In this document: in pieces, positions 41,372 through 64,000 of the stretch
Position numbering within the stretch: the stretch's first letter is position 1
How the letters are laid out: each line of letters begins with the position of its first letter
Origin: an uncultured Planctomycetota bacterium
GTDB lineage: Bacteria; Planctomycetota; PLA2; JAEUHO01
Assembly: GCA_963752285.1 (NCBI GenBank)
Contig: CAVVXN010000005.1
Span: 256,001-320,000, forward strand
Length of the DNA stretch: 64,000 nucleotides
Direction of reading: 5' to 3'
Made by a program: the position numbers and the translations under genes
Notes under the pieces: generated by a model
What the model was told of the DNA's origin: nothing
Databases searched by the model: none
Seen by the model: the letters and a program-made list of their open reading frames with translations, nothing else

Positions 41372-41501
41372 TCGCGCGGAGCGTCGTCGCGACCGCATTG
41401 CGCGCTCGCTCCCGCCTACGTCCTCCAACTTGCGGCGGGTACGATCCGCTCGTCGTCGAGGATCGGCTCCCCTCGGACCCCGATCCGACGGAGGAGGGCC
41501 C

Positions 41502-42920
41502 ATGGCCGAGGACGTACAGGTCGAGTCCCGTCAGAGCATCGATCGCCAGTCGGCGCGCCAGCTCGCGACCACCACGAAGAGCGTGCCCCAGATGGTGGGG
41601 ATCACGCCGCGGCTCCTGCTGCGCCTCCTCCCCTGGGTGCAGGTCGAGTCGGGCACGTACCGCGTGAACCGCCGCCGCGCGGTCCCGCGCGACAGGGGTC
41701 GGCTGCGCGTCGACGTGACGAACGGGAGCGTCCGGCTCTCGGGCTCGGACCTCCAGAACGTCCCGCTGTTCAGGGACACCGACGGGAGGGTCCTCGACCA
41801 GCTCGCGAAGAAGTTCAAGACCGAGGTGTACAAACCCGGCCAGACGGTCGTCCAGGAGGGCGACGCCGCGGACCGGTTCTTCCTGGTCGCGCAGGGCAAG
41901 GTCGAGGCCTCCACGACGGGGCCGCACGGCGAGCGGCTGCGCCTCGGCGTCCTCGGCGACGGCGACTACTGCGGCGAGATGGCGCTCCTCTGCGACAGCC
42001 CGCGCATGGCCACGCTCACGTGTCTCACGCGCGGCGTGCTCCTCGCGCTGCCGAAGGACGAGTTCCAGGCGCTCCTCGGGAAGGCGCCGCGGCTCCAGGA
42101 CGAGCTCCAGGAGGCCGTCGACCGCCGGCTCCGTCTGCTCCGCGAGGTGAACGAGCACGGCGAGCGGCCGGTGCAGGTCGCGGCGAGCCACGACGGCGAG
42201 CCCGACGTGCCCGAGGTGATGCTCGACTACGAGACGGAGCCGCGCGAGTACCCGCTCTTCAGCGCGCAGACGATCGTCCGCGTCCACACGCGCGTCTCCG
42301 ACATCTTCAACCAGCCGATCAACCAGCTCCGCGAGCAGATCCGGCTCGCCATCGAGGGGCTGAAGGAACGGCAGGAGTGGGAGATGGTGAACAACGCGGA
42401 CTTCGGCCTGCTCCACCAGGCCGACCCGCTCATGCGGATCCCGACCCGCAAGGGGCCGCCCACGCCCGACGACCTCGACGAGCTGATCTCGCGCGTGTGG
42501 AAGAAGCCGGCGTACTTCCTGGCCCACCCGCGGGCCATCGCGGCGTTCGGGCGCGAGTGCACGCGGCGCGGCGTCCCGCCGGCGACCGTCAACGTGTTCG
42601 GGAGCCCCTTCCTCACGTGGCGCGGCATCCCGCTCTTTCCCTGCGACAAGGTCGAGGTGAAGAACGACGAGCGCGGCGCGGGCGAGACGAGCATGCTCCT
42701 GATGCGCGTCGGCGAGCAGGAGCAGGGCGTCGTCGGCCTCCACCAGACGGGCATCCCCGGCGAGCAGATGCCGAGCCTCTCCGTCCGCTTCATGGGCATC
42801 AACCAGCGGTCGGTCGCCTCGTACCTGGTCACGAACTACTACTCGGTCGCGGTGCTCACGCCGGACGCGCTGGGCGTGCTCGAAGGCGTCCAGGTGGGGC
42901 ACTACCATGAGTACGCGTAG
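41502..42920 (+). CDS. Family 2B encapsulin shell protein (HK97 fold with inserted cNMP-binding domain)
   Basis: [36 protein letters not shown], cNMP domain (GDYCGEMAL...PRMAT), [55 protein letters not shown]. Confidence 0.93.
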
Positions 42921-45198
42921 CGGCGCGAACGACCCCTCCGCCTGGGGGACGCTCGAGCCCCTCTTCCTGCCCGCTCCCTCGAGGAACGGCGCGGCGCCGA
43001 CGACCGGGCCCGCGGTGCCGTCCCCGCTCGGGAGCGCCGAGGGCGAGGCGAAGCCCGCGGTCCCGGCCGCGGGCGGCGGGGACCCGCGCGGACTGCCGCC
43101 GCAAGCTCTCGCCGTGGCGATCGGATCGGTTCCCGGCGGCACGGGCGCGCCCGGCTACTACTTCCTCCCGCTCCCCGGCGCGGCGTCGCTCCAGACGCCG
43201 GGCGACCTGTCCGCGGGCGTGCTCCCCTCGGCGCCGAGCGTCGTGCTCTGGCCCGAGACCGCGCCGCCCCCGACGCCGACGCCCACCGCCGAGGCGCCGG
43301 CGCCCGTGTCGCCCGCGACCGGCGCCGCCGATCCGTACGCGGACTCGGCCGTCTACTTCGGTGGACCGCGCGGGGCCCCGCCGGCGTCGGCACACCGGGC
43401 GCCGTCGGCCGAGGCTCCGGGCGGGCCGACCGCGCCCGTCGCGACGCCGTCGTCCCGGGGCACGACGTCCGTCGCGCCGCCCTCCGAGGTCTGGGGCGCG
43501 CCCGCGGCGCCGATCGCCGCGCCCTTCCTCCCGTCGCCCGACGCCGACCTCGACGTCTCCGGGGAGGACCACGACGGAGCGGGGGTCGATCCGCGCGGCG
43601 CCGCGCCGTCGGTCGCCCCGCCCGCACGCTCCGATGCCGGCGCCCTCGACGGACACGACCTCCCACCCGGCGTCCCGCCGCCCGCGAGCGCCGAGGACGC
43701 CGCGGCGCTCCGGCTCGCGCTCGACCTCCAGCGGCGGATCGACGGGCCGAGCGCGGCGCTCCAGGGCGAGCCGATCCGCCATGGCGAGCGCCTCGGCGCG
43801 GTACCGCACCTCCCGACGAGCGACGCGGGGATCCGCCGCCTCGTCTCGTCCGCATTCGGCCTCACGCCGCCGGAGGCGGCGACGGACGCGCCCGACGCGC
43901 CCGCCGTGCCCGGTCACGGGACGGCCCAAGACCTCTACTTCCTGCCCGCCGTGCCGCGCGTCGCCGCGCCGTCGGCGGACGGGTTCGACGTGAACGCCGT
44001 CCGCCGCGACTTCCCCGTGCTCCAGCAGAGGGTGCACGGGAAGCCGCTCGTCTGGTTCGACAACGCGGCCACCACGCAGAAGCCCCAGGCCGTCATCGAC
44101 GCGGTGTCCCGCTACTACGAGCAGGACAACTCGAACATCCACCGCGGGGCGCACGCGCTCGCGGCCCGCTCGACGGAGGCGTACGAGAATGCGCGGTCCA
44201 CGGTGCGCCGGTACCTCGGCGCGTCGCTGCCCGAGGAGATCGTGTTCGTCCGCGGTACGACGGAGGCGATCAACCTCGTCGCGAAGTCGTGGGGGCGGAA
44301 GAACGTCGGCCAGGGCGACGAGATCGTCCTGACGCAGCTCGAGCACCACGCGAACATCGTCCCGTGGCAGATGCTCGCGCAGCGCACGGGCGCGGTGCTC
44401 AAGGTCGTGCCCGTGACGGACCGCGGCGAGGTGATCCTCGAGGCGTACACGCGCCTCTTGGGCCCCCGCACGCGGCTGGTGGGGGTGACGCAGGTCTCGA
44501 ACGCACTCGGCACGGTGGTCCCCGTGAAGGAGATGGCGGTCCTCGCGCACCGGCACGGGGTGCCGATCCTCGTGGACGGCGCGCAGTCGATCCCGCACCT
44601 CCGGGTAAACGTCCAGGACCTCGACGCCGACTTCTTCGTGTTCTCGGGGCACAAGATCTTCGCGCCCATGGGCATCGGCGTGCTCTACGCGAAGAAGGAG
44701 CACCTCGAGACGATGCCGCCCTGGCAGGGCGGCGGCAGCATGATCCGGGACGTCACGTTCGAGCGGACGACCTACTCCGACCCGCCGGCGAAGTTCGAGG
44801 CGGGGACGCCGTCCGTCGCGGACGCGGTCGGCCTCGGCGCGGCGCTCGAGTACCTGGAGCGCCTCGGGATCGAGAACCTGGTCCGCTACGAGGACGAGCT
44901 GCTCCACTACGCGACGGAGTGCGTCGGCTCGATCCCCGGGATCCGCCTGATCGGGACGGCGGCGCACAAGGTGAGCGTGCTCTCGCTCCTGGTCGAGGGC
45001 GCGCGCGTGGAGGACGTCGGCCGGTACCTCGACGGCGAGGGGATCGCGGTCCGCGCGGGCCACCACTGCGCGCAGCCGACGATGCAGCGCTTCGGCATCT
45101 CGGGCACGGTCCGTCCGTCGCTCGCCTTCTACAACACGAAGGCCGAGGTCGACCGTCTGGCGACCGCGCTGCGCCGCTTCCGCCCCGGCCCCTCCTGA
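42907..45198 (+). CDS. SufS-type cysteine desulfurase with ~350-aa Pro/Ala-rich N-terminal extension (encapsulin cargo)
   Basis: [52 protein letters not shown]; overlaps the shell gene end. Confidence 0.94.
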
Positions 45199-45204
45199 GG
45201 GGCA

Positions 45205-46927
45205 CGTCGGGTCGCGGCCGCGCCAGGCGCGGTGAGGGGCGGCGGCCGAGCCGGGTCGGAAAGCCCCGGCCGTGACCGCCTCGTCGCTCGCCGCGGTCTC
45301 TCTCCGTGGGCGTCACGCGAGAGAGCGTCGGCCGGCCGGGGGCACGGGCGGCCCCGCCGCCGACGAGGGTCTACCGGCCGCGTCACCCGGAGCGCACCGC
45401 CCTCTACCAGGTGCTCGAGGCACGCTTCGAGGACTACCGGCGGGCGTACCCCGACCGCTTCGAGCCCGAGGCGGGCCCTTGGCGGAAGGAGATCGAGGAG
45501 GCGGTCTACGCGTACCTGGACTGCGGCCGCCTTCACGGGGGCTTTGCCCGCATTAGGTGCCCGAGGTGCGGCGCGGAGCACCTGCTCGCCTTCTCGTGCC
45601 GGACGAGGAACCTGTGTCCGTCGTGCCCGTCGAAGCGCTCGTGGGTCTTCGCGGAGTGGCTGGGGCGAGAGGTGCTGCTGGAGGTCGCGCACCGGCACGT
45701 GGTGTTCACGGTGCCCAAGCGGCTCCGGGGCCTGGTCGCGCGAGACCGGGCGCTCCACGGGGTGATGGCGCGGGCCGCCTGGGAGGTGCTCCGCGAGAGC
45801 CTCTCCGAAGCCGCCTCCGAACGAGAGGGCGCTCCGGGGGCGGTGATCTCGCTCCAGACGTTCGGGTCGTTCGGCGCGAACTTCCATCCCCACCTGCACG
45901 CGATCGTGACGGAGGGGGTGTTCACGAAGGACGGCCGGTTCCATCCCGTGATCTGGCCGACGCCGGCGCGCCTGGAGATGCGGTTTCGCCTACGTTTCCT
46001 GGGGGCGCTGGTGGAGGGGGGGCGGCTGCGGGCCGAGACGCGGTCGCGGTTCCTCGCCTGGTCGAGGTCGGGGTTCTCGGTGGACGCGACGCACCGGGTG
46101 GCGGCCGGCGAACGGGAGCGGGCCGAGCGGCTGGCGCGCTACGCGACGCGGGTGGTGCTGGCGACGGGGAAGGTGAGGCGGCTCGAGGGGGGCCGGGTGC
46201 GGGTCGAGACCCCCCCCGACCCGTGGACGGGTCGGACGTGGCTCGAGCTGGACGAGCTCGAGCTCGTCCACGCAGTGTGCCAGCAGGTGCCGTCCCGGGG
46301 GCGGCACCTCGTCCACTACTACGGGGTGTACGCGAACCGGCTTCGCCGGGCGTTCCGGGCGGCGCGAGCGGCGCGGGCGGGGGAGGAGGCGCCGACGGGT
46401 GGGGGGGCAAAGGGCCGGACGCCGGTCAAGCGGGGTCCGGAGGAGCGGGCCCCGGAGGCGTCGTCCGGGCCGACGTCGAGAGCCGCGTCCCTCAAGCGAC
46501 AGGCGTGGGCGCGGCTCCTGAGGAAGGTGTTCGAGGTGGACCCGCTGCTCTGTCCGCGTTGCCAGGAGACGATGGAGAAAGTGGCGTTGATCCTCGACCC
46601 GAAGACGGTGGAGCGAATCCTCAGCCATCGGCGCGAGCGAGGGCTCGAGTCGGCGTTCGAGGGGCCGCCCGCGAGGGCGCCGCCGGCGGCGCAGGGCGAA
46701 CGAAGAGACTTCGGGAGGAGGAGGGGGGCCGTCGTGTAGAGGCGGGCGGGAGCGGTACGTCCCCGTTGGCCGCCCCGGGCCTTGCGAGAGGGACCCAGAG
46801 TGCCGCGAATCCGGGCATGGGCCCGTACGGCGCAGATCCCGAGCGCGAGGAGGTGCGAAGCGGTCGACACAACCCTTGCGCGACCACGCGACGCCGCCCA
46901 CGACGAGGATTCAATGTCCTATGCGTC
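45205..46927 (+). mobile_element. Full-length IS91/ISCR-type rolling-circle element
   Basis: Transposase plus a right end shared with three other copies; left end inferred from CGTC at 45205 and palindrome 45218-45232. Confidence 0.85.
45306..46739 (+). CDS. IS91-family HUH transposase (ISCR-like, single Tyr)
   Basis: Zn domain CPRCG...CRTRNLCPSC, HRHVVFTVP, HUH motif FHPHLH, RLARYATR, HLVHYYGV, WARLLRKVFEVDPLLCPRC, ARAPP. Confidence 0.93.
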   Translation: MGVTRESVGRPGARAAPPPTRVYRPRHPERTALYQVLEARFEDYRRAYPDRFEPEAGPWRKEIEEAVYAYLDCGRLHGGFARIRCPRCGAEHLLAFSCRTRNLCPSCPSKRSWVFAEWLGREVLLEVAHRHVVFTVPKRLRGLVARDRALHGVMARAAWEVLRESLSEAASEREGAPGAVISLQTFGSFGANFHPHLHAIVTEGVFTKDGRFHPVIWPTPARLEMRFRLRFLGALVEGGRLRAETRSRFLAWSRSGFSVDATHRVAAGERERAERLARYATRVVLATGKVRRLEGGRVRVETPPDPWTGRTWLELDELELVHAVCQQVPSRGRHLVHYYGVYANRLRRAFRAARAARAGEEAPTGGGAKGRTPVKRGPEERAPEASSGPTSRAASLKRQAWARLLRKVFEVDPLLCPRCQETMEKVALILDPKTVERILSHRRERGLESAFEGPPARAPPAAQGERRDFGRRRGAVV

Positions 46928-47348: not shown

Positions 47349-50300
47349 GTGGCCAAGGTCGTCCGTGTGGCGGGTCGGGCTCTCTGGATCGTTCTGCCGC
47401 TGCTGGCCGTGGGGATCTTCCTGGCGTTCCCCCCGGGCACCGCCCGGGCGAGTTACACGAATCCGTACTGGTCGAGCTCCTCTCCCTCCCCCGAGTGCGG
47501 GTGCAGCGGGTGCGGCTGCGCCCGGCCGCCCGAGTGGTCGCCCGAGGGCGTGTCGTACCGAACGGGAGAGGCACGAATCGGCTTCTTCCTCTTCGACACG
47601 CCCGGGATGGTGGGCCGGCACGACTTCGCGCTCACCTGGCGATCCATGACCAGCGGGGCCACACAGTTCGGAAACGGGATGCTGTTCAACCTCGAGCGCA
47701 CACTCGAGATCACACTCGGGGAGACCATCGTCTATGACCGCTGGCCGAGCGGACGGATCGTCACGTGGTACCTGGACGCCGGCACCTACGTGACGTCGGA
47801 CTGCAGCGTTCACGACACCCTCGAGAAGAACGGCAGCGGGTACTTCGAGATCCACGGCAAGTACAAGGACGTGTGGACGTTCGACGCGAACGGGATGCCG
47901 AGCACCTACGCGGATCGAAACGGGAACGCGCTCACCTTCACCTACAGCACGTATCAACTGACCGGCATCACGGACGACCGGGGGAAGTCCTACACCTTCC
48001 ATCACGACGGCAGCGGGTTCGTCGACTACATCACCGACCCCACGAGCCGGACCTGGAACTTCTCGTACTCGTCTGGGAACCTCGTGGGCATCACCACGCC
48101 GCACACGCCCGACCAGACGAGTGGGATCACGACGACGATCTCCTACGACGGCTCGGACCGCATCGACGCGATCGAAGACGGGAACGAGAACACCGTCTAC
48201 GAGTACGCCTACGTCACGGGGACCGAGAAGATCGACCACGTCACGATCGACGGGGACGACCCGAGCTACGCCTACTACACCGGACGTACCGACGTGACCG
48301 ACCGGCTCGGGAACCTCTGGCGCTACTACTACTCGGGCGCCAACATCACGAAGACCTGCATGTACGTGGACTCGGAAGAGCAGTACGTCACGAACTACAC
48401 CTACAACGGCGACGACCTGATCACCGTCGTCTACCCCCGCGGGAACCGCCTGGACCTCACCTACGACGGGGACTCGAACATCACCGAGCGCCGCCGGAAG
48501 ACGACCGACACCGCGAGCACGAGCGGTACGGACATCGTGGAGAGCTACGCGTACAGCCACAACTTCCTGACCTCGTACACGGACGCCCTCGGAAACGAGA
48601 CCACGTACACGCGAGACACCCCGGGGAACCTGACGCGGATCGACTTCCCGGACGTCACGGACCCGTCCTCCCAGTCCGCCTACAAGACTTGGACGTACAA
48701 CGGCTACGGGCAGGTCACCGCGGCGACCGACGAGGAGGGGACGGAGGTCGACTACTCCTACTTCTCCTCAGGTGACTACGTCGGACTGCTCCACACCGTG
48801 GAGGTGGACCCGAGCGGATTGGACCTGACCACCACCTACGCCTATGACTCGTATCGAAACGTCTCCTCGGTCACCGACCCCAACGGGAACGCCACGACGA
48901 CCACCTGGGACGCGCTACGTCGAAGGACCGAGGTCGACGCGCCCTACCCGCTCTCCTACCAGACGAAGTACAAGTACGACGGGATGGGGAACCTCGTCCA
49001 GGCGGACGTCCAGAACGTCGACAAGGACGGGAACGTCAGCGGGTCGAACCCCTGGTTCACGACGACCTACACGTACACGGCCACGAACCACGTCGCGACG
49101 ATCACCGAGGAGATCGACGCGAGTACGACCCGCACGACCACCGTCGAGTACGACGCGAACGAGAACCGGATCCGCGTGACCAAGCCCGAGGGGAACAAGG
49201 AGAAGTGGGTCTACGACGAGCGAGACCTCGTCTACCAGCACATCCGAGGCGAGACCGACGAAGAGGCCTCGACGGAGACGTTCGCATACGACGACAACGG
49301 GAACCTCGTCACGAGGACCGACGGCCGCTCGCACAGCACGACCTACACGTACGACCTCTTCGACCGGCGGACCCGGACCACGAACGCCCTCTCGCACTAC
49401 GAGACGACCGACTACGACAAGGCCGGGCACGTCACGAAGATCGAGCGGCGGGACTCGGGGGACACCCTGCTCGAGCGCCGCGAGTTCGCCTACGACGAGC
49501 GGGGGCGGCTCTTCGAGGTGACCGACCTCTACAAGGACCCCGGGACGACCTACGACGACGCCGTGACCACGATCGAGCGGCGGAAGACCGGCCAGGTCCT
49601 GGTCGTGACGAACGCGAGGGGGAAGGACACGACCTACGACTTCGACGACGCCGGGCGGATGGTGTCGGTGACGGACGCCATGGGGAACGAGACCGCCTGG
49701 ACCCTGGACGACGCTGGGAACCGGACGGACTGGTCGGTCACGGAGATCGACGGCGAGTCGAGCGTGACGCACCAGTACGAGGCGACGTACGATGTGCTGA
49801 ACCGCATGGCCACCCGGACCGAGATCGACCGCCTGGACGGGGAGCACGAGCTCGACGACGACCTACGGGCGCGACAGCCGGTCGAACCTCGTGTGGATGG
49901 TGAACGCCGAGGGGAACCCGACGCGCTTCACCTTCGACGGCCTGGGCCGGATGACCAAGAAGGAGGTCGCGCTCTCCTACGGCGACCCGATCGAGACGTT
50001 CACGAGCGCGATCGTCACGCAGTGGGGGTTCGACGACAATGACCGGCTCGTGTCCTTCAAGGACGACGCGAGCCACGAGACGACCTGGACGTACGACGCG
50101 CTCGACCGCGCCGCGACGATGACCTACCCGGACTCGACCTACATCACGTACACGCACGACGCGACAGACGACGTGGTCGAGACGGTCGACGCGGCCGGGA
50201 ACGACATCGAGGACACGTTCGACAACCTGAACCGGATGACGGCTCGGAACATCACGCGGGCGGGCTCGTTCATCGGGACGACCTCGGAGTCCTACTCCTA

Positions 50301-52331
50301 CGACGCGTTGAATCGCCTGACGGAGGCCGAGAACAACGACTACACGGTGGACTTCACGTACGGGGTCCGGGGGCTCGACTCGACCGTCTACACGGAGGCC
50401 CAGGAGTACGCATCGGGGACGGCGTACACGAAGACCGTGACGAGCACGTACGACGCGGTCGGGAATCTGAAGTCGCTCGACCTACCCCTCCGGCCTCGCG
50501 CTTGCCGAGAGCTACAACGACGTCGGCGCCCTCTCCTCGATCTCGGACGGGACGAACACGATCGCCTCGTTCACCTACATCGGGACGCGGCCGAAGGTGA
50601 CGACGTTCCAGAACGGCACGACCCAGACGAACACGCTACGGCGGGTTCCGGGAGGAGGTCACGAGCATCGACCACGAGACGTCGAGCCCCTCGACGATCG
50701 TCAGGCTCGACTACGCCTACAACGACGTCCACGACCGGATCTACGAGCGGTACGGCAGCTCGGGCTCGTCCGGGGACGCCTTCGAGTACGACAAGGCGCG
50801 GCGTCTCACGGTCGCCTGGATGGGCTCGGCCTCGCCGGACAGCCCGAGCGGGGCGGCCTACACCAAGAAGATCGAGTACAACTACGACGACGACGGGAAC
50901 AGGACTTCCGTCGTGGTGACCCCGTACGGGCAGTCTCCGGCGACGACCAGCTACAGCACCAACACGCTGAACCAGTACACCGCCGTGGGTGGGGTCAGCC
51001 ACAGCTGGGACGGCAACGGAAACCTCTCGGACGACGGGACCTTGACGTACGAGTACAACTACCGTAATGAGATCTGCCGGGTCAAGAACGGCGGCACGAC
51101 GGTGGCGACCTACAAGTACGACGCGCTGGGCCGACGGGTGGAGAAGGCCGTGACGGGCGGCGTCACCGAGCGCTACGTCTACGCGGGCGTCGAGACGATC
51201 GCGACCTACGACGGCTCGAACACCTGGAAGCAGGACTTCGTGTTCGGCCAGGGGATCGACAACGTCCTGATGCTCGAGCAGGCGGACGTGCTCGACTTCG
51301 ACGCGGACCAGAACACGAGCGAGACGACGCGGTCCTTCTACCACAAGAACGCGCTCGGCTCCGTGATGGCGATCACGGACATGAGCGAGGCGACGGCGGT
51401 GTCGTACCGCTACGATCCGTACGGGACCGTCACGATCACGCGGGGCGGGCAGACGCAGTCGACCGATCCACTCGGGCAGCACTGGGGCTATGCGGGTCGT
51501 TACTACGATGAAGAAACCGGCGGGGTCTATTCCCGGGCGCGAGAATATGGACCTAACCTAGGGCGCTTTGGGCAACGAGACCCGCTGAGGGCAGCAAGCC
51601 TCAAGAATTCGTATTGCTACGGAAGCAATTCGCCAGTATCTCGGTGCGACCCAACCGGGCTGGTCGACGGCCCTGACCACAGGCCAATGCCAGGAACGGA
51701 CCCCGGCAACCCGCCCAGCATACCTCCGTCCGATCCAACGATACCCAACGATCCCGCGGGTTTGCCCGATACCCATTTCCGCGCGCGAAACGATCCAAGA
51801 GTCAAGGTCGGAGGGGCCAAGATCACGGACTTGCTGGGTAACGAGGGCTTCTGTCTCGCGGCGCTTGGGCCGGCCGGTCGTCGCCTAGCATGGGTGCAAT
51901 ACTACAAGTGGGACCTTCTATGGGAGATCATTGGGGAGAACGCGACATCTGTTCCGACGGGCATGCCGGGGCCGCAGAATGATCCTCCGGGGAATTCGGG
52001 CCTCTACCCCAAGCAGAATGGAGCCGGCACACACGCAGTTGGTTTGGGTGACGCGCCGGGCTGGAACATCGGAGGCGAGCCGGCGGCTTGGGCTGCAATG
52101 GTGGCGCATCCGGACATCTTCCTCGAAACAGTGTTCCGGGAGGCAGGCATTTCCCCGGCTCCACCAAGCGGTGTGATTTATGCCGTTTCGACTCTGGACC
52201 TGCGATCCTTTCTGATCGACCTTCAGACCGGACGCGTCCTCGAGAGGGTGCGCACAGTAAAGACGTACATATACAATCTCTTCGGGGATCCTCAATTGAC
52301 CCAGCACGTCCAGGGTCCGGCGCAGTTCTAG
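47349..52331 (+). CDS. Secreted RHS/YD-repeat protein with variable C-terminal extension; three apparent frameshifts (~49857, ~50482, ~50637)
   Basis: Signal peptide; dozens of YD repeats continuing across frames; core end YRYDPYG...GRYYDEETG...RAREY...GRFGQRDP...DPTGL (ends 51662), then ~222 aa of distinct composition. Confidence 0.9.
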
Positions 52332-52348
52332 TGCGTGAGGTGGCGGGC

Positions 52349-53497
52349 ATGAGCTGGCGAGCATCCGCTCTCCTTGTGCTACTGCTTTCGGTCGACAGTA
52401 CTCTACCCCAGTCGACTGCACGCGGAGCAGGCAACAACCGCCTGTCCGATATCGTCGAGATGGTTGACGACCACTTCTTCTTGATGAAGCCAGATAAGAC
52501 AAGATGGGCCCTGGTCTACTCGGAGCAACGATCGTGCAGAGATGGCTTCCTGGGGGGCCTGGGGATCAGGACACACGAAGCGCAGGGTCGGGATGAGGTC
52601 AGGACCTTCGATTGGCGAGAGTTGCGATTTGAGAAGTCCGATGGGTGGGTTGAGGTCGGAGTAGAGGGGATCTTGAGGCGCAGGGTGGTCGAATTGCGGG
52701 GGCAGACAGATGGCGGCAGTGTCGGCAAGATACTGCGGATCCAGCGCGCCAGGATGCCGGACAGGGCATCCCCCGAGCTGGAGGTGGTCCTGCTGCGTGG
52801 TTGCATCGCATGGTTCACTAGACACGCACACGACCAGCGCCGACGGCGCGCGGCCGTGCTTGGCGAAATCGCTGACAGTCTCGATGTCATCGCGGCAGCA
52901 TGCCCCGCGGAGAGGTCGACCCTCCTTGCGGGCCAGCTGGGTGATCTCTGGGCGACAAGCGCGGTGCTTGACTACGCGAGTGAATTGTCCGTGCGTGGAG
53001 GGGTTGGGCAGCGACTGCATTGGTACGTCACAAGTGGCCTTGTGGGTAGTTATGGTCCAGAGGTAAGGAGCCTGGTGGAGAACTGGCCCAGTGAGGTTGA
53101 GTTGGCCGACGCCGGGGGCAGCACGGAGGACCTGGTTAGGTCGCTTTGGAGCCAACATGGATGGTCGGCCGTTACACCAGGGTGGCCGGACGTGTTCCTG
53201 GACGAGCGTCCTGAGAGCCCTGCTATGCGGATCCTGAGGAGGGGGGAAGCAGTACTACCCACTCTGCTTGATTCTCTCAGCAACGCTACTCCGACGCGCA
53301 CCCTAGCACGAGACGCGTACCCTGGTGGGCTGCCAGCGCTCCTGCGAATCGGCGATGTTGTCGGGCAGGTGCTGGAGAAGTTGCTGGATCAACGGCTACC
53401 TCGCCGGAGCCTCGCGGATGAGGGTCTGGAAGCCTGGGCGCGTCGCGTGCGGCGCGCCATTGGATCTCGTGGTGCGCGGCCGAAGCCAGGCGGCTGA
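52349..53497 (+). CDS. Hypothetical exported protein, candidate RHS immunity/partner
   Basis: Starts 17 bp after the RHS stop; signal-like MSWRASALLVLLLSV; same lower-GC style as the RHS tip. Confidence 0.65.
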   Translation: MSWRASALLVLLLSVDSTLPQSTARGAGNNRLSDIVEMVDDHFFLMKPDKTRWALVYSEQRSCRDGFLGGLGIRTHEAQGRDEVRTFDWRELRFEKSDGWVEVGVEGILRRRVVELRGQTDGGSVGKILRIQRARMPDRASPELEVVLLRGCIAWFTRHAHDQRRRRAAVLGEIADSLDVIAAACPAERSTLLAGQLGDLWATSAVLDYASELSVRGGVGQRLHWYVTSGLVGSYGPEVRSLVENWPSEVELADAGGSTEDLVRSLWSQHGWSAVTPGWPDVFLDERPESPAMRILRRGEAVLPTLLDSLSNATPTRTLARDAYPGGLPALLRIGDVVGQVLEKLLDQRLPRRSLADEGLEAWARRVRRAIGSRGARPKPGG

Positions 53498-53509
53498 GCA
53501 AGTGTAACG

Positions 53510-53690
53510 TATCCGTCCCGTCAACCCAGGTAGCGGCACATTGGCCCGCGCCGGACGTCAGCCCGTATCGGGTGCAGCCCGACCGCGGGCCTCCCGCCAT
53601 CCCCGCTGCGTGAGCTTGTGCATGCGCTCCGCGGGGTTGTCGCGGAGCCACCGGGCGGAGACGTGCGCCCTCACGTAGAGGCCCATGAAA
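53510..53690 (-). pseudogene. Possible IS66-family right-end remnant
   Basis: Minus-strand peptide WLRDNPAERMHKLTQRGWREAR resembles IS66 TnpC C-termini, followed by ...GACGGGACGGATAC resembling an IS66 end; recognised from memory only. Confidence 0.4.
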
Positions 53691-54690
53691 TGACCTGGCC
53701 GACGCCGGCGCGCCTGGAGATGCGGTTTCGCCGACGTTTCCTGGGGGCGCTGGTGGAGGGGGGGCGGCTGCGGGCCGAGACGCGGGCGCGGTTCCTCGCC
53801 TGGTCGAGGTCGGGGTTCTCGGTGGACGCGACGCACCGGGTGGCGGCCGGCGAACGGGAGCGGGCCGAGCGGCTGGCGCGCTACGCGACGCGGGTGGTGC
53901 TGGCGACGGGGAAGGTGAGGCGGCTCGAGGGGGGCCGGGTGCGGGTCGAGACCCCCCCCGACCCGTGGACGGGTCGGACGTGGCTCGAGCTGGACGAGCT
54001 CGAGCTCGTCCACGCAGTGTGCCAGCAGGTGCCGTCCCGGGGGCGGCACCTCGTCCACTACTACGGGGTGTACGCGAACCGGCTTCGCCGGGCGTTCCGG
54101 GCGGCGCGAGCGGCGCGAGCGGCGCGGGCGGGGGAGGAGGCGCCGACGGGTGGGGGGGCAGAGGGCCGGACGCCGGTCAAGCGGGGTCCGGAGGAGCGGG
54201 CCCCGGAGGCGTCGTCCGGGCCGACGTCGAGAGCCGCGTCCCTCAAGCGACAGGCGTGGGCGCGGCTCCTGAGGAAGGTGTTCGAGGTGGACCCGCTGCT
54301 CTGTCCGCGTTGCCAGGAGACGATGGAGATCGTGGCGTGGATCCTCGACCCGAAGACGGTGGACCGAATCCTCAGCCATCGGCGCGAGCGAGGGCTCGAG
54401 TCGGCGTTCGAGGGGCCGCCCGCGAGGGCGCCGCCGGCGGCGTAGGGCGAACGAAGAGACTTCGGGAGGAGGAGGGGGGCCGTCGGGAGAGGCCGTCGTG
54501 AGAGGCGGGCGGGAGCGGTACGTCCCCGCTGGACGCCCCGGGCCTTGCGAGAGGGACGCAGAGTGCCGAGAATCCGGGCATGGGCCCGTACGGCGCAGAT
54601 CCCGAGCGCGAGGAGGTGCGAAGCGGTCGACACAACCCTTGCGCGACCACGCGACGCCGCCCACGACGAGGATTCAATGTCCTATGCGTC
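53691..54690 (+). mobile_element. 5'-truncated copy 2 of the IS91/ISCR-type element (1000 bp)
   Basis: Near-identical to 45949-46927; lacks Zn and HUH motifs; same terminus. Confidence 0.95.
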
Positions 54691-54721
54691 GCCCACGACG
54701 AGGATTCAATGTCCAATGCGT
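54691..54721 (+). repeat. Tandem second copy of the terminal 31 bp of the element
   Basis: GCCCACGACGAGGATTCAATGTCCAATGCGT directly follows GCCCACGACGAGGATTCAATGTCCTATGCGTC (1 internal mismatch). Confidence 0.95.
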
Positions 54722-54848
54722 AAGCCGACGTGCTTGCCGCCCATCTCGATCGAGTACCAGAGATCCTGGTCTCCGTGGCGCCGGCAGGCCGGGCGCCGAG
54801 GAACAGGACGAGGAGGGGGAGGGCGGCAGGGAGTAGACGGCGTCTCAT
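54722..54848 (-). pseudogene. N-terminal fragment of a secreted-protein gene cut at the element terminus
   Basis: MRRRLLPAALPLLVLFLGARPAGA-TET... runs into the terminal repeat. Confidence 0.55.
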
Positions 54849-57069: not shown

Positions 57070-58288
57070 CAAGCGGCTCCGGGGCCTGGTCGCGCGAGAC
57101 CGGGCGCTCCACGGGGTGATGGCGCGGGCCGCCTGGGAGGTGCTCCGCGAGAGCCTGTCCGAAGCCGCCTCTGAACGAGAGGGCGCTCCGGGGGCGGTGA
57201 TCTCGCTCCAGACGTTCGGGTCGTTCGGCGCGAACTTCCATCCCCACCTGCACGCGATCGTGACGGAGGGGGTGTTCACGAAGGACGGCCGGTTCCATCC
57301 CGTGATCTGGCCGACGCCGGCGCGCCTGGAGATGCGGTTTCGCCGACGTTTCCTGGGGGCGCTGGTGGAGGCGGGGCGGCTGCGGGCCGAGACGCGGGCG
57401 CGGTTCCTCGCCTGGTCGAGGTCGGGGTTCTCGGTGGACGCGACGCACCGGGTGGCGGCCGGCGAACGGGAGCGGGCCGAGCGGCTGGCGCGCTACGCGA
57501 CGCGGGTGGTGCTGGCGACGGGGAAGGTGAGGCGGCTCGAGGGGGGCCGGGTGCGGGTCGAGACCCCCCCCGACCCGTGGACGGGTCGGACGTGGCTCGA
57601 GCTGGACGAGCTCGAGCTCGTCCACGCAGTGTGCCAGCAGGTGCCGTCCCGGGGGCGGCACCTCGTCCACTACTACGGGGTGTACGCGAACCGGCTTCGC
57701 CGGGCGTTCCGGGCGGCGCGAGCGGCGCGAGGGCGCGGGCGGGGGAGGAGGCGCCGACGGGTGGGGGGGCAGAGGGCCGGACGCCGGTCAAGCGGGGTCC
57801 GGAGGAGCGGGCCCCGGAGGCGTCGTCCGGGCCGACGTCGAGAGCCGCGTCCCTCAAGCGACAGGCGTGGGCGCGGCTCCTGAGGAAGGTGTTCGAGGTG
57901 GACCCGCTGCTCTGTCCGCGTTGCCAGGAGACGATGGAGATCGTGGCGTGGATCCTCGACCCGAAGACGGTGGACCGAATCCTCAGCCATCGGCGCGAGC
58001 GAGGGCTCGAGTCGGCGTTCGAGGGGCCGCCCGCGAGGGCGCCGCCGGCGGCGTAGGTCGAACGAAGAGACTTCGGGAGGAGGAGGGGGGCCGTCGTGAG
58101 AGGCGGGCGGGAGCGGTACGTCCCCGTTGGCCGCCCCGGGCCTTGCGAGAGGGACGCAGAGTGCCGAGAATCCGGGCATGGGCCCGTACGGCGCAGATCC
58201 CGAGCGCGAGGAGGTGCGAAGCGGTCGACACAACCCTTGCGCGACCACGCGACGCCGCCCACGACGAGGATTCAATGTCCTATGCGTC
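57070..58288 (+). mobile_element. 5'-truncated copy 3 of the IS91/ISCR-type element (1219 bp)
   Basis: Near-identical to 45716-46927; retains HUH motif but lacks Zn domain; frameshift near 57730; same terminus. Confidence 0.95.
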
Positions 58289-58686: not shown

Positions 58687-58922
58687 GGGGCCACGCCGAG
58701 GGGGACGACGTGGTCCACCTGCGTAGCGGGCTCGGTCAGCCCCCGGCGCGCGCATTCCCGGCAGAGGGGCTCCTCGCGCAGAACCTGGGCCCGCACGGCC
58801 TGCCAGCCGGCGGACCCGTGGATGCGGGCCACGACGGGGTCGCGGCGGGTGCGGTTGTACTCCGCGTCCGCATGGCGGCGGCTGCGTAGGATCCCAGCGA
58901 GCGTGCGCGGCTTCGAAGGCAT
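58686..58922 (-). pseudogene. Truncated phage-type HNH endonuclease
   Basis: MPSKP...WQAVRAQVLREEPLCRECARRG...ATQVDHVVP; the second half (N..LC..CH) is missing. Confidence 0.75.
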
Positions 58923-59198
58923 CGGTGCCTCGGCTCGCGCCGGCTGGGATCAGCGCCCTGGGAGCCTACCACGCCAGAGCGACGTGCAAACCCAGATGCC
59001 CTGCGGGCCAACCCTCCGAGCCGACATGCGCAGCGCGAACCTCGGCTCCGTTCCATCCGCGGCGCTCCATCCGCAGTGCGGTCAGCGCGGGGCCCTGATC
59101 AGATTGGAGTCGTGCGTGTCGTCGACTCATGGGCCTAAAGCCCATGGCTGAACGGCCTGAGGAGCGTACAATCCCTCCTGTGAATTGGGAGGTACCAC

Positions 59199-61903: not shown

Positions 61904-62504
61904 TGTACGCGAACCGGCTTCGCCGGGCGTTCCGGGCGGCGCGAGCGGCGCGGGCGGGGGAGGAGGCGCCGACGGGTGGGGGGGCAGAGGGCCGGACGCC
62001 GGTCAAGCGGGGTCCGGAGGAGCGGGCCCCGGAGGCGTCGTCCGGGCCGACGTCGAGAGCCGCGTCCCTCAAGCGACAGGCGTGGGCGCGGATCCTGAGG
62101 AAGGTGTTCGAGGTGGACCCGCTGCTCTGTCCGCGTTGCCAGGAGACGATGGAGATCGTGGCGTTGATCCTCGACCCGAAAACGGTGGACCGAATCCTCA
62201 GCCATCGGCGCGAGCGAGGGCTCGAGTCGGCGTTCGAGGGGCCGCCCGCGAGGGCGCCGCCGGCGGCGTAGGGCGAACGAAGAGACTTCGGGAGGAGGAG
62301 AGGGGCCGTCGTGTGGAGGCGGGCGGGAGCGGTACGTCCCCGTTGGCCGCCCCGGGCCTTGCGAGAGGGACCCAGAGTGCCGAGAATCCGGGCATGGGCC
62401 CGTACGGCGCAGATCCCGAGCGCGAGGAGGTGCGAAGCGGTCGACACAACCCTTGCGCGACCACGCGACGCCGCCCACGACGAGGATTCAATGTCCTATG
62501 CGTC
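61904..62504 (+). mobile_element. 5'-truncated copy 4 of the IS91/ISCR-type element (601 bp)
   Basis: Near-identical to 46327-46927; same terminus. Confidence 0.95.
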
Positions 62505-62777
62505 GTCCCCGGGGAGGACCTCGACGGGGCGGGGGCCGGTCCGCGCGGCGCCGCGCCGTCGGTCGCCTCGCCCGCGCGCCCCGAGGCGGGCCTCCTCGAC
62601 GGACACGACCTCCCGCCCGGCGTCCCGCCGCCCGCGAGCGCCGAGGACGCCGCCGCGCTCCGGCTCGCGTTCGACCTCCAGCGGCGGATCGAGGGGCCGA
62701 GCACGGCGCTCCAGGGCGAGCCGATCCACCAGGGCGAGCGCGTCGGCGCGGCGCCGCACCTCCCGACGAGCGACGCG
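62505..62777 (+). repeat. Diverged internal fragment of the cysteine desulfurase gene (43555-43827)
   Basis: Ungapped manual alignment: 22 mismatches in 273 bp (~92%). Confidence 0.95.
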
Positions 62778-62797
62778 TGGACCCGTGCGGAGCGCGG

Positions 62798-64000
62798 TTA
62801 CTTGCCCAACGAGCTGCTGAGCCTCACCCTGATCACGTCGGCGCCTCGTTCCGGCGAGAGGGCCGACGCGTACCAGGCTTCCTCTGCTCCTTGTGCCCGC
62901 CCGGCAACGGAAACCGGAAATCGATCAGGATGGATCCACACGGTCAGGACCCGTCCAAAGAGTAGTGCGCCTCCGCCACAGCCCGCTCCCTTGCGATCGC
63001 TGACTTGGACCAAGAGCCATGGAGACTCGGAGCCCATCTCTCGAGGCGGCGACACCTCCAATCGGATCGCCTGCTCGAAGCGAAGGGAGAGCTCGAGCTC
63101 GCGGCCCGCGACCGCCGGCACCGCCGGCGCATCGAGGTGCCCGAGGCGTGATGCGGTTTCGGGCGGGGGGCGCGCCGAGGCCATGAGGTCGCTGCCGGTC
63201 GGGATGCCGTCGAAACGACACGTGCCGGAGTCGTCCGTAACTCCATTCCAGGGGAAGGACCCCTCCCGTCCCCGGAGGATTACGAGGGCGCCGCTCGCCG
63301 GCTCGCCGGAGGGGCCGTAGACCCTGACGCGGATCGCGGCGCACCCGGGAGCGCGCCGGGCGACCACGCGCACCTGTCCCGCTCCATCGGAGGGCACTCT
63401 CGCTTCTCCCTGCCAAGGCGACGGCGAACGCAGGATCTCTCCCCATGCGACCTGCATTCGTTCGCTCCGGAGCACGAGCCGGCACGCACTGGGCGTCCCG
63501 GCCGGACAGCCGAGGTCGAAGACCCCGCTCCCAGTCGTCCACGTCGAGGCGATGCGTTCTCCGTCCGCCTGAACCAAGTCCACCCCGACCCCTGCGACTC
63601 GCCCCCCCCCCTCGGTCACGACCAGCCCGCGAATCGAACGCCGGGGACGTAACGTGACCTCGATCTCCTGCTTGCCGCGCGCCTGTGATGCAGCAAGCTC
63701 CTCTCGCATCCAGCGCCCGCCGTCCGTGGCGCCGGGATCGACGATGACTAGGCGCGAGTCGTCGGCGAGAAAGACTCGGGCCCGACCCAGAAGGTCTGTC
63801 GTGACGCCGTAGATGCCTGCGCTCGTCTGCACGGCCACCGTGCACTCCGGGAGTGGTTCCCCGATCGAGGTCAGTACGCGCACATCGATCGGCTTCCCTG
63901 GCGTGGTACAGGTTCGCAACTCGACTCTGGCGACTTGCCCCGAGCGGACGTGGACCTCCTGCGCCACGTAGGGCGCACCGGGAACACGCGCAACGACGCG
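62798..64000 (-). CDS. Carboxypeptidase-regulatory-like repeat protein (N-terminus beyond the right edge)
   Basis: VRVLTSIGEPLP, IRGLVVTEGGGRVAGV, VRVYGPSGEPASGA, TDDSGTCRFDGIP; frame open to the window edge. Confidence 0.7.
   Translation of the reverse strand, partial: RVVARVPGAPYVAQEVHVRSGQVARVELRTCTTPGKPIDVRVLTSIGEPLPECTVAVQTSAGIYGVTTDLLGRARVFLADDSRLVIVDPGATDGGRWMREELAASQARGKQEIEVTLRPRRSIRGLVVTEGGGRVAGVGVDLVQADGERIASTWTTGSGVFDLGCPAGTPSACRLVLRSERMQVAWGEILRSPSPWQGEARVPSDGAGQVRVVARRAPGCAAIRVRVYGPSGEPASGALVILRGREGSFPWNGVTDDSGTCRFDGIPTGSDLMASARPPPETASRLGHLDAPAVPAVAGRELELSLRFEQAIRLEVSPPREMGSESPWLLVQVSDRKGAGCGGGALLFGRVLTVWIHPDRFPVSVAGRAQGAEEAWYASALSPERGADVIRVRLSSSLGK

Follow-up and report, generated by a model that had tools for sequence, protein, structure and literature searches.

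The 64,000-nt stretch of DNA analyzed here (C5:256001-320000, hereafter the window) raises the question of how a piece of a cysteine desulfurase gene came to lie, to the base, against the end of a transposon copy. The window is part of an assembly (G000) of 4.64 Mb in 5 contigs, with 73% G+C and 89% completeness. The first-pass annotation had read the arrangement as a rolling-circle junction. The geometry supports a junction of this kind, but it does not prove the mechanism, and a plain insertion followed by deletion fits about as well. Positions of the relevant features are collected in Table 1.

Table 1. Features of the desulfurase locus and of the IS91-family array (window coordinates; window-equivalent positions lie beyond the end of the window).
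Feature	Position	Strand	Evidence and remarks
Family-2 encapsulin shell gene, cNMP-binding domain and SrpI-like shell	41430..42920	+	Pfam SrpI-like E 1e-117, cNMP_binding E 5e-24
Resident cysteine desulfurase, 763 aa	42907..45198	+	Pfam Aminotran_5 E 1e-140 at residues 382-751
Source-like segment, codons ~216-310 of N-terminal extension	43551..43835	+	self-blastn, translation
IS91-family element, only full-length one in assembly; tnpA 45306-46739	45205..46927 (left end approximate)	+	Pfam Zn_Tnp_IS91 and Y2_Tnp
Truncated copy 2 (= 45949-46927) with 32-nt tandem repeat of its own terminus	53691..54722	+	self-blastn
Truncated copy 3 (= 45716-46927)	57070..58288	+	blastn 98.1% over 1220 nt
Truncated copy 4 (= 46327-46927)	61904..62504	+	10 mismatches in 601 nt; oriIS end abuts fragment
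Orphan desulfurase fragment	62504..62787	+	open in desulfurase frame, without own start codon, no indel, GC3 0.98
CarboxypepD_reg-repeat gene, 3' part, convergent, 896 aa	62798..64000, runs to window-equivalent 65488	-	Pfam CarboxypepD_reg E 4.5e-47; GC3 0.76
Copy 5 (equivalent starts at 46626)	window-equivalent 68144-68445	+	
Copy 6 (equivalent starts at 46201)	window-equivalent 72985-73631	+	
Copy 7 (equivalent starts at 46579)	window-equivalent 79570-79918	+	

Self-blastn of the window aligned 62501-62785 with 43551-43835 in the same orientation (+/+; 285 nt without a gap; 25 mismatches; 91.2% identity; E 5e-112), and a MAFFT alignment of both segments gave the same ungapped register. This match is not due to chance. 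The narrower match reported by the first-pass annotation, 273 ungapped nt to 43555-43827 with 22 mismatches, proved exact by the mismatch list. On its right side the homology ends at 62785-62787, 11-13 nt short of the CarboxypepD_reg stop codon (62798-62800). Because the fragment has no start codon and sits between a transposon end and a convergent stop codon, it is a gene piece, not a gene, and no function would be expected of it. Its composition is host-like, since its GC3 of 0.98 compares with 0.74-0.76 in the genes on its right, of which the CarboxypepD_reg gene is the first; native genes have values of 0.90-0.94. By composition, then, a stretch resembling host DNA is caught here between the end of a transposon and foreign cargo.

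The source gene is one of a pair. In the shell protein a cNMP-binding domain precedes the SrpI-like fold, and the desulfurase is read as a probable cargo of this family-2 encapsulin by gene context, because the start of its gene overlaps the 3' end of the SrpI-like shell gene. The label of desulfurase gene given to the source was right, since Aminotran_5 occupies residues 382-751 of the source ORF. The copied part, however, is not the enzyme domain: it belongs to the coding region of an N-terminal extension of ~380 aa, rich in Pro, Ala and Gly in translation, which lies ahead of Aminotran_5. For the Synechococcus SrpI system, the desulfurase's N-terminal domain is described as disordered, fast-evolving or poorly conserved, and needed for loading, and motifs of the LARLANEFFS and AASPYYFLDG types are given for it (PMC8049743). 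YYFLP and LYFLP are visible by eye in the translation of the resident desulfurase. AALRLALDL, which falls within the stretch covered by the fragment, may at most be a counterpart of the LARLANEFFS type. The locus resembles SrpI-type family-2 encapsulins with desulfurase cargo in the presence of the shell gene pair and in the long N-terminal extension before the desulfurase domain. Unlike in those systems, the shell here has a cNMP-binding domain; the fragment has neither start codon nor partner, and nothing points to a function for it.

A SrpI-like shell gene adjacent to a long-extension desulfurase gene, both full length, was found in 3 of 40 relatives (G001, G009 and G011). Counting G000 and one partial match, the pair occurs in 5 of the 41 related genomes searched. 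Between G000 and the same-genus genome G001, the shell orthologues share 70% aa identity and the catalytic parts of the desulfurases ~78%, and of the source-like segment only short stretches are kept (AL..ALDL, HLPTSD). When 9 GC3-rich ORFs of the G001 locus were compared, two upstream ORFs, the encapsulin and the desulfurase matched the same place in G000, and the two ORFs downstream of the G001 desulfurase had no match in G000 at E <= 1e-20. It had been suggested that a related strain carries the element at the same locus; G001, the one same-genus genome, has the gene pair with no IS91 beside it, which speaks against this suggestion. Elsewhere in G000, a second desulfurase gene (C5:1818848-1820422) encodes a protein with 49% aa identity to the cargo from residue 225 on, including part of the extension region.

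The transposase of the full-length element contains Zn_Tnp_IS91 (E 2.9e-18) and Y2_Tnp (E 3.2e-20) domains in Pfam, with CxxC pairs at 85 and 104, HPHLH at 194-198 and YYGVY at 338-342. By these domains and motifs the element is an IS91-family rolling-circle transposon with an HUH/Y2 transposase. A search of GTDB species representatives gave only three relatives of the transposase, the closest with 70% aa identity. No terminal inverted repeat above chance was detected when the left 92 nt were aligned with the right 90 nt in reverse complement (best local score 20; shuffles mean 16.5, max 27). Similarity to L020, the locus with the nearest transposase relative (70% aa identity), begins near 45262. 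A small palindrome lies at 45218-45232, two 7-nt ones lie at 45215-45248 near the left end, and the last 196 nt hold no inverted repeat >=7 nt (6-nt seed; perfect palindromes only). With the desulfurase stop codon at 45196-45198 and the transposase ORF starting at 45306, a left end near 45205-45260 is reasonable, and with it the earlier estimate that the source lies ~1.65 kb upstream of the element.

The right end of the full element reads ...GATTCAATGTCCTATGCGTC. All four in-window copies have the terminus ...GATTCAATGTCCTATGCGT(C) in common and diverge beyond it, and ...GAGGATTCAATGTCCTATGCGT is exact in 6 of the 7 array copies, copy 5 having two changes. The 23-nt terminus of the array recurs at L032, a locus of metagenome origin unrelated to it, and L020 carries GAGGATTGAAT in the corresponding position; in one metagenome contig the element stops at 62503, followed by other DNA. 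Because this terminus is conserved in the array copies, the metagenome contig, L032 and L020, and lies downstream of tnpA as in IS91, it is the oriIS-type end, in line with the view that the fused end is the ori end of an IS91-type element. It presumably resembles the published ISCR/IS91 ori consensus. A scan of metagenome contigs with a 17-nt ori motif gave 48 loci, none of which matched the element (blastn E <= 1e-5); 47 were AT-rich chance matches, and L032 alone had the same terminus. Short tandem repeats of the terminus were observed after copy 2 (32 nt at 54691-54722, with 2 mismatches) and at L032 (15 nt at ~1518-1532), and may represent abortive transposase events or slippage.

Seven same-strand copies of the element lie in ~35 kb. 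The oriIS end is present in all of them, the left end in the first only. Over the assembly as a whole, the ori end is preserved in 7 truncated pieces and the left end in none of them; were retention of the two ends equally probable, this outcome would have a probability of ~0.008 (hand calculation). The piece outside the array is a 103-bp stump on the other strand (C5:911488-911590).

The IS91-family pieces are separated by patchwork DNA (Rhs, HEAT, TPR, Ser/Thr kinase, IS66, IstB/IS21 and a dispersed repeat), and G+C falls to 61-69% in places between 46.9 and ~80 kb. The Rhs-repeat gene at 47349-53497 is broken into three or more frames (47349-50042, 49891-50919 and 50820-52331), and contigs C1 and C2 have Rhs pieces of 92-95% identity to it close to their ends. 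A complete IS66-family element with three ORFs occupies window-equivalent 69849-72423 (L011 5849-8423); an end remnant of this family at 53508-53652 is 88% identical to it and lies 40 bp left of IS91 copy 2. Copies 5 and 6 have IstB/IS21 fragments, two in all, on their left. The dispersed repeat of ~300 bp has at least 8 copies with 82-90% identity, most of them at C5:2156-2184 kb and others at 58687-58971 and window-equivalent 79919-80240 (L011 15919-16240). Its copy after IS91 copy 7 is cut internally, exactly at the ori end of copy 7, which implies that DNA has repeatedly been joined at the ori boundary. The encapsulin-desulfurase operon stands at the edge of a very unstable island.

At the junction itself, the last base that copy 4 shares with the other copies is 62503/62504, and desulfurase homology starts at 62504/62505. 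No base lies between them, as the first-pass annotation had observed. The junction reads GCGT-CGTC and the resident gene TCGA-CGTC, with no useful microhomology. Since GCGT stands at the junction where the resident gene has TCGA, a target-derived tetranucleotide is not evident. No conserved tetranucleotide of the CTTG/GTTC/GTCC type was found beside the ori ends in the array copies, the metagenome contig or L032: the four bases after ...CCTATGCGT are CTGG, CGCC, CCGC, CGTC, GTGC and GGGG in the array copies, TTGG in the metagenome contig and CAAT/CGGG in L032. A different target may lie inside the constant GCGT. GACGTC, present at the break and near the left end of the element, was considered as a ter-like motif, but it is no commoner than chance (62 in the window vs 74 expected by shuffling), so its presence at both places is meaningless. 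With non-conserved bases after the terminus and a break motif at chance level, IS91 target rules are unusable for orienting the event. Among 12 public runs ranked by word share, the best reached 0.32; metagenome contigs of four runs were compared with the region and match only the IS part, 61904-62504, and a few 18-30-nt scraps elsewhere. None of them bridges 62504/62505, and they are uninformative on the junction.

We searched for the origin of the fragment at several levels. In the assembly it has two matches in all, itself and the resident gene (91.5% over 281 nt). The presence of a second full desulfurase paralog matching the fragment had been named as a finding that would tell against a rolling-circle junction; none was found in the assembly, where the other desulfurases are distant (best 49% aa identity). 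A tblastn search without low-complexity filter gave hundreds of spurious Pro/Ala matches. Of the 5' part of another desulfurase allele, the assembly shows no trace. A closer allele was not detected in the 40 relatives with the resident N-terminal DNA as query (nothing above 57 bits outside the own genome), in a set of 5.8 billion proteins with residues 205-325 (own protein only, among 6091 candidates) or in metagenome contigs with the fragment translation (598 pattern matches, 0 confirmed).

The pattern of differences favors a diverged allele, as had been proposed, over a copy of the resident gene. The gene piece is 91% identical to the resident gene, whereas the adjoining IS part is 98.3% identical to the full copy, and for this reason the fragment was evidently not copied from the resident gene at the same time as the IS copies. 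The IS element is also present in wetland and soil metagenome contigs of several studies at 95-99+% identity. The data would fit an IS that is young and mobile, while the host genes had time to diverge.

A comparison of synonymous and other sites had been put forward as a way of telling a foreign functional allele from decay, and by this comparison the differences look random. Mismatches between fragment and resident gene fall 8/8/9 on the three codon positions, 6 being synonymous and 19 non-synonymous (dN/dS 1.23), and are not clustered (P 0.52). Taken alone, the even spread and the dN/dS value would fit decay, but the test has little power in a domain described as disordered and fast-evolving and nearly free to vary (PMC8049743; G000 vs G001). 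Three minor features point the other way. The 285 nt contain no indel and no stop codon in the desulfurase frame. Of the 9 third-position differences, 6 set A/T in the resident gene against G/C in the fragment, and none is the other way round (two-sided P ~0.03, hand calculation); the GC3 of 0.98 compares with 0.91 in the resident segment; with this bias and this GC3, the A/T-ward drift expected of dead DNA is absent. In addition, a run of 25 codons has two synonymous and no amino-acid changes (P 0.035, permutation). Judged from these few sites, the fragment seems to come from a diverged working allele that selection maintained through most of the divergence, and to have been orphaned recently.

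We tentatively prefer the explanation that the fragment is a relic of a second allele, ~9% diverged, that was joined to the oriIS end by the rolling-circle chemistry of the element itself. In the IS91 family, transfer is reported to start at oriIS and to run through the element to terIS, terIS is missed in 1-14% of events so that terIS-side DNA is moved, and circles of the ori-ter and ori-to-far-end types exist (PMC13181058). Because the full copy lies directly downstream of the desulfurase gene and on the same strand, read-through would enter this gene at its 3' end, and a junction between ori and mid-gene sequence would be expected. We infer both the direction and the order of the events, as well as a foreign origin for the fragment. 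In a related strain, an ori-bearing unit would have resided downstream of, or within, the desulfurase gene of that strain. Transfer would have run from oriIS leftwards, past the left boundary of the unit, and ended in the coding region for the desulfurase N terminus (one-ended transposition). The product would then have been set against the ori end of the preceding array copy, either by insertion at an ori-adjacent site or through a circle recombining via shared IS sequence.

The fragment would thus represent the far end of a read-through unit. It need not stem from the 3.4-kb circle (43555-46927) invoked by the first-pass annotation. Such a circle predicts that ori is followed by 43555 through to 45198 and then by the element, and only 285 bp are present, so that this part of the proposal fails. 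Since only 285 bp of the expected 1.65 kb are found, followed by unrelated low-GC3 genes, an extra rearrangement is needed. Later IS traffic could have replaced whatever stood right of the fragment; alternatively, the unit could have been gutted later, or the moving unit could have been a different one, for example the fragment with the cargo after it and the 300-bp ori stump at window-equivalent 68144-68445.

A rolling-circle read-through junction is plausible on this evidence. Exact abutment, same-strand geometry and an IS91-type transposase would all count for it. Recurrent events at the ori boundary, seen in the terminus repeats, the cut dispersed repeat and the asymmetry of the retained ends, would support it further. 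Against it stand the absence of a donor allele and of a second instance of the junction in our searches, as well as the locus of G001 without IS91. The 8/8/9 spread with a dN/dS of 1.23 would fit plain decay too, and neither a tetranucleotide of the CTTG/GTTC type at the ori ends nor a ter-like motif at the break was found.

The strongest competing explanation, which we consider somewhat less likely, is a plain insertion of an IS91-family copy into another desulfurase allele, at the site corresponding to 43553/43554, followed by decay and deletions. The fragment would then be target DNA on the ori side, and this other allele would have belonged to a donor strain or to a paralog since lost. IS21/IS66/IS91 traffic and deletions would have removed the 5' part of this gene, 1.1 kb from the left of the element and all sequence past 285 bp. 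In favor of this, the region is an IS graveyard with IS66, IstB/IS21 fragments, the dispersed repeat and seven IS91 pieces, and an IS66 end remnant lies 40 bp left of copy 2. The seven copies could be independent same-strand insertions at a hotspot. The extra events required equal in number those of read-through, and the sequence is fitted about as well. However, a plain insertion leaves it to coincidence that the gene struck is the one directly upstream of the only full copy. It also has to account for the lack of any 5' remnant of the second allele in the whole assembly and for a junction (GCGT, resident TCGA) with no evident target-derived tetranucleotide.

Very improbable, in our view, is an old local segmental duplication, or an illegitimate recombination independent of the transposase, followed by neutral decay, with an end that falls at the IS terminus by chance. 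Although the unclustered mismatches (P 0.52), their even codon-position spread and a dN/dS of ~1.2 agree with such decay, the boundary coincides with the transposon terminus to the base, third positions show no A/T-ward drift (6 vs 0, GC3 0.98), and no indel occurred in 285 nt at 9% divergence. Least probable of all is an assembly artefact, a contig that passes within the IS91 repeat from one strain of a mixed population to another: the assembly (5 contigs, 89% complete) does have many IS and Rhs repeats at its contig ends and the junction is not covered by the public runs compared, but a strain switch predicts the rest of the other desulfurase gene instead of a break after 285 bp at a site that is not a repeat, and nothing in the assembly other than the resident gene matches the fragment.

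Returning to read-through, the closest parallel is the one-ended transposition of IS91, IS1294 and IS801. These elements share with the present one the transposase architecture, unlike ends and an oriIS downstream of tnpA; in addition, read-through of terIS moves upstream DNA in them, and an ori-to-far-end junction is expected (PMC13181058). They differ in that the transposase here is distant, that CTTG, GTTC or GTCC does not stand beside ori and that transposition of the present element is a prediction. Helitrons offer only an analogy. They are likewise rolling-circle HUH elements and leave gene fragments captured by end bypass as short orphan pieces beside the element (PMC4778049), but they are eukaryotic, have Rep/helicase proteins and, in the usual depiction, capture at the functionally opposite end.

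The array recalls those of ISCR elements. Intact or partial ISCR2 copies are reported to flank tet(X) units (PMC7722449), and the oriIS side of ISCR1 to face the variable region (PMC6218425). Shared features are copies in the same orientation, most of them without the terIS side and with oriIS kept, and unrelated genes between them. In contrast, the cargo of ISCR arrays consists of resistance genes in clinical Proteobacteria, whereas here Rhs, kinase, IS debris and unknown genes are found in an uncultured high-GC soil/wetland bacterium. Both the desulfurase piece and the cut dispersed repeat abut ori ends, for which capture and insertion are alike possible. A bolder version of the preferred explanation, improbable but worth stating, is that the entire 35-kb stretch is a natural ISCR-like capture array in this soil/wetland bacterium, probably a planctomycete. 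Ori stumps lacking tnpA would have been moved in trans together with upstream DNA, each being set against the previous ori end, so that the array grew head-to-tail. On this view, the desulfurase piece would document, with a date, that such units are transferred between strains ~9% apart in their host genes.

The junction described here is a clearly delimited scar left by a mobile element of a known type, and as a sign of DNA mobility it is rather commonplace. Of more interest than the desulfurase junction is the array of stumps that bear ori. If read-through is true, the locus would be a natural case of one-ended transposition by an IS91-family element outside clinical Proteobacteria, in which host DNA was carried between related strains. 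The captured piece would then serve as a rough clock (91% for the host gene and 98% for the element) and would help to explain the way in which islands of gene shuffling are assembled by these elements in environmental bacteria.
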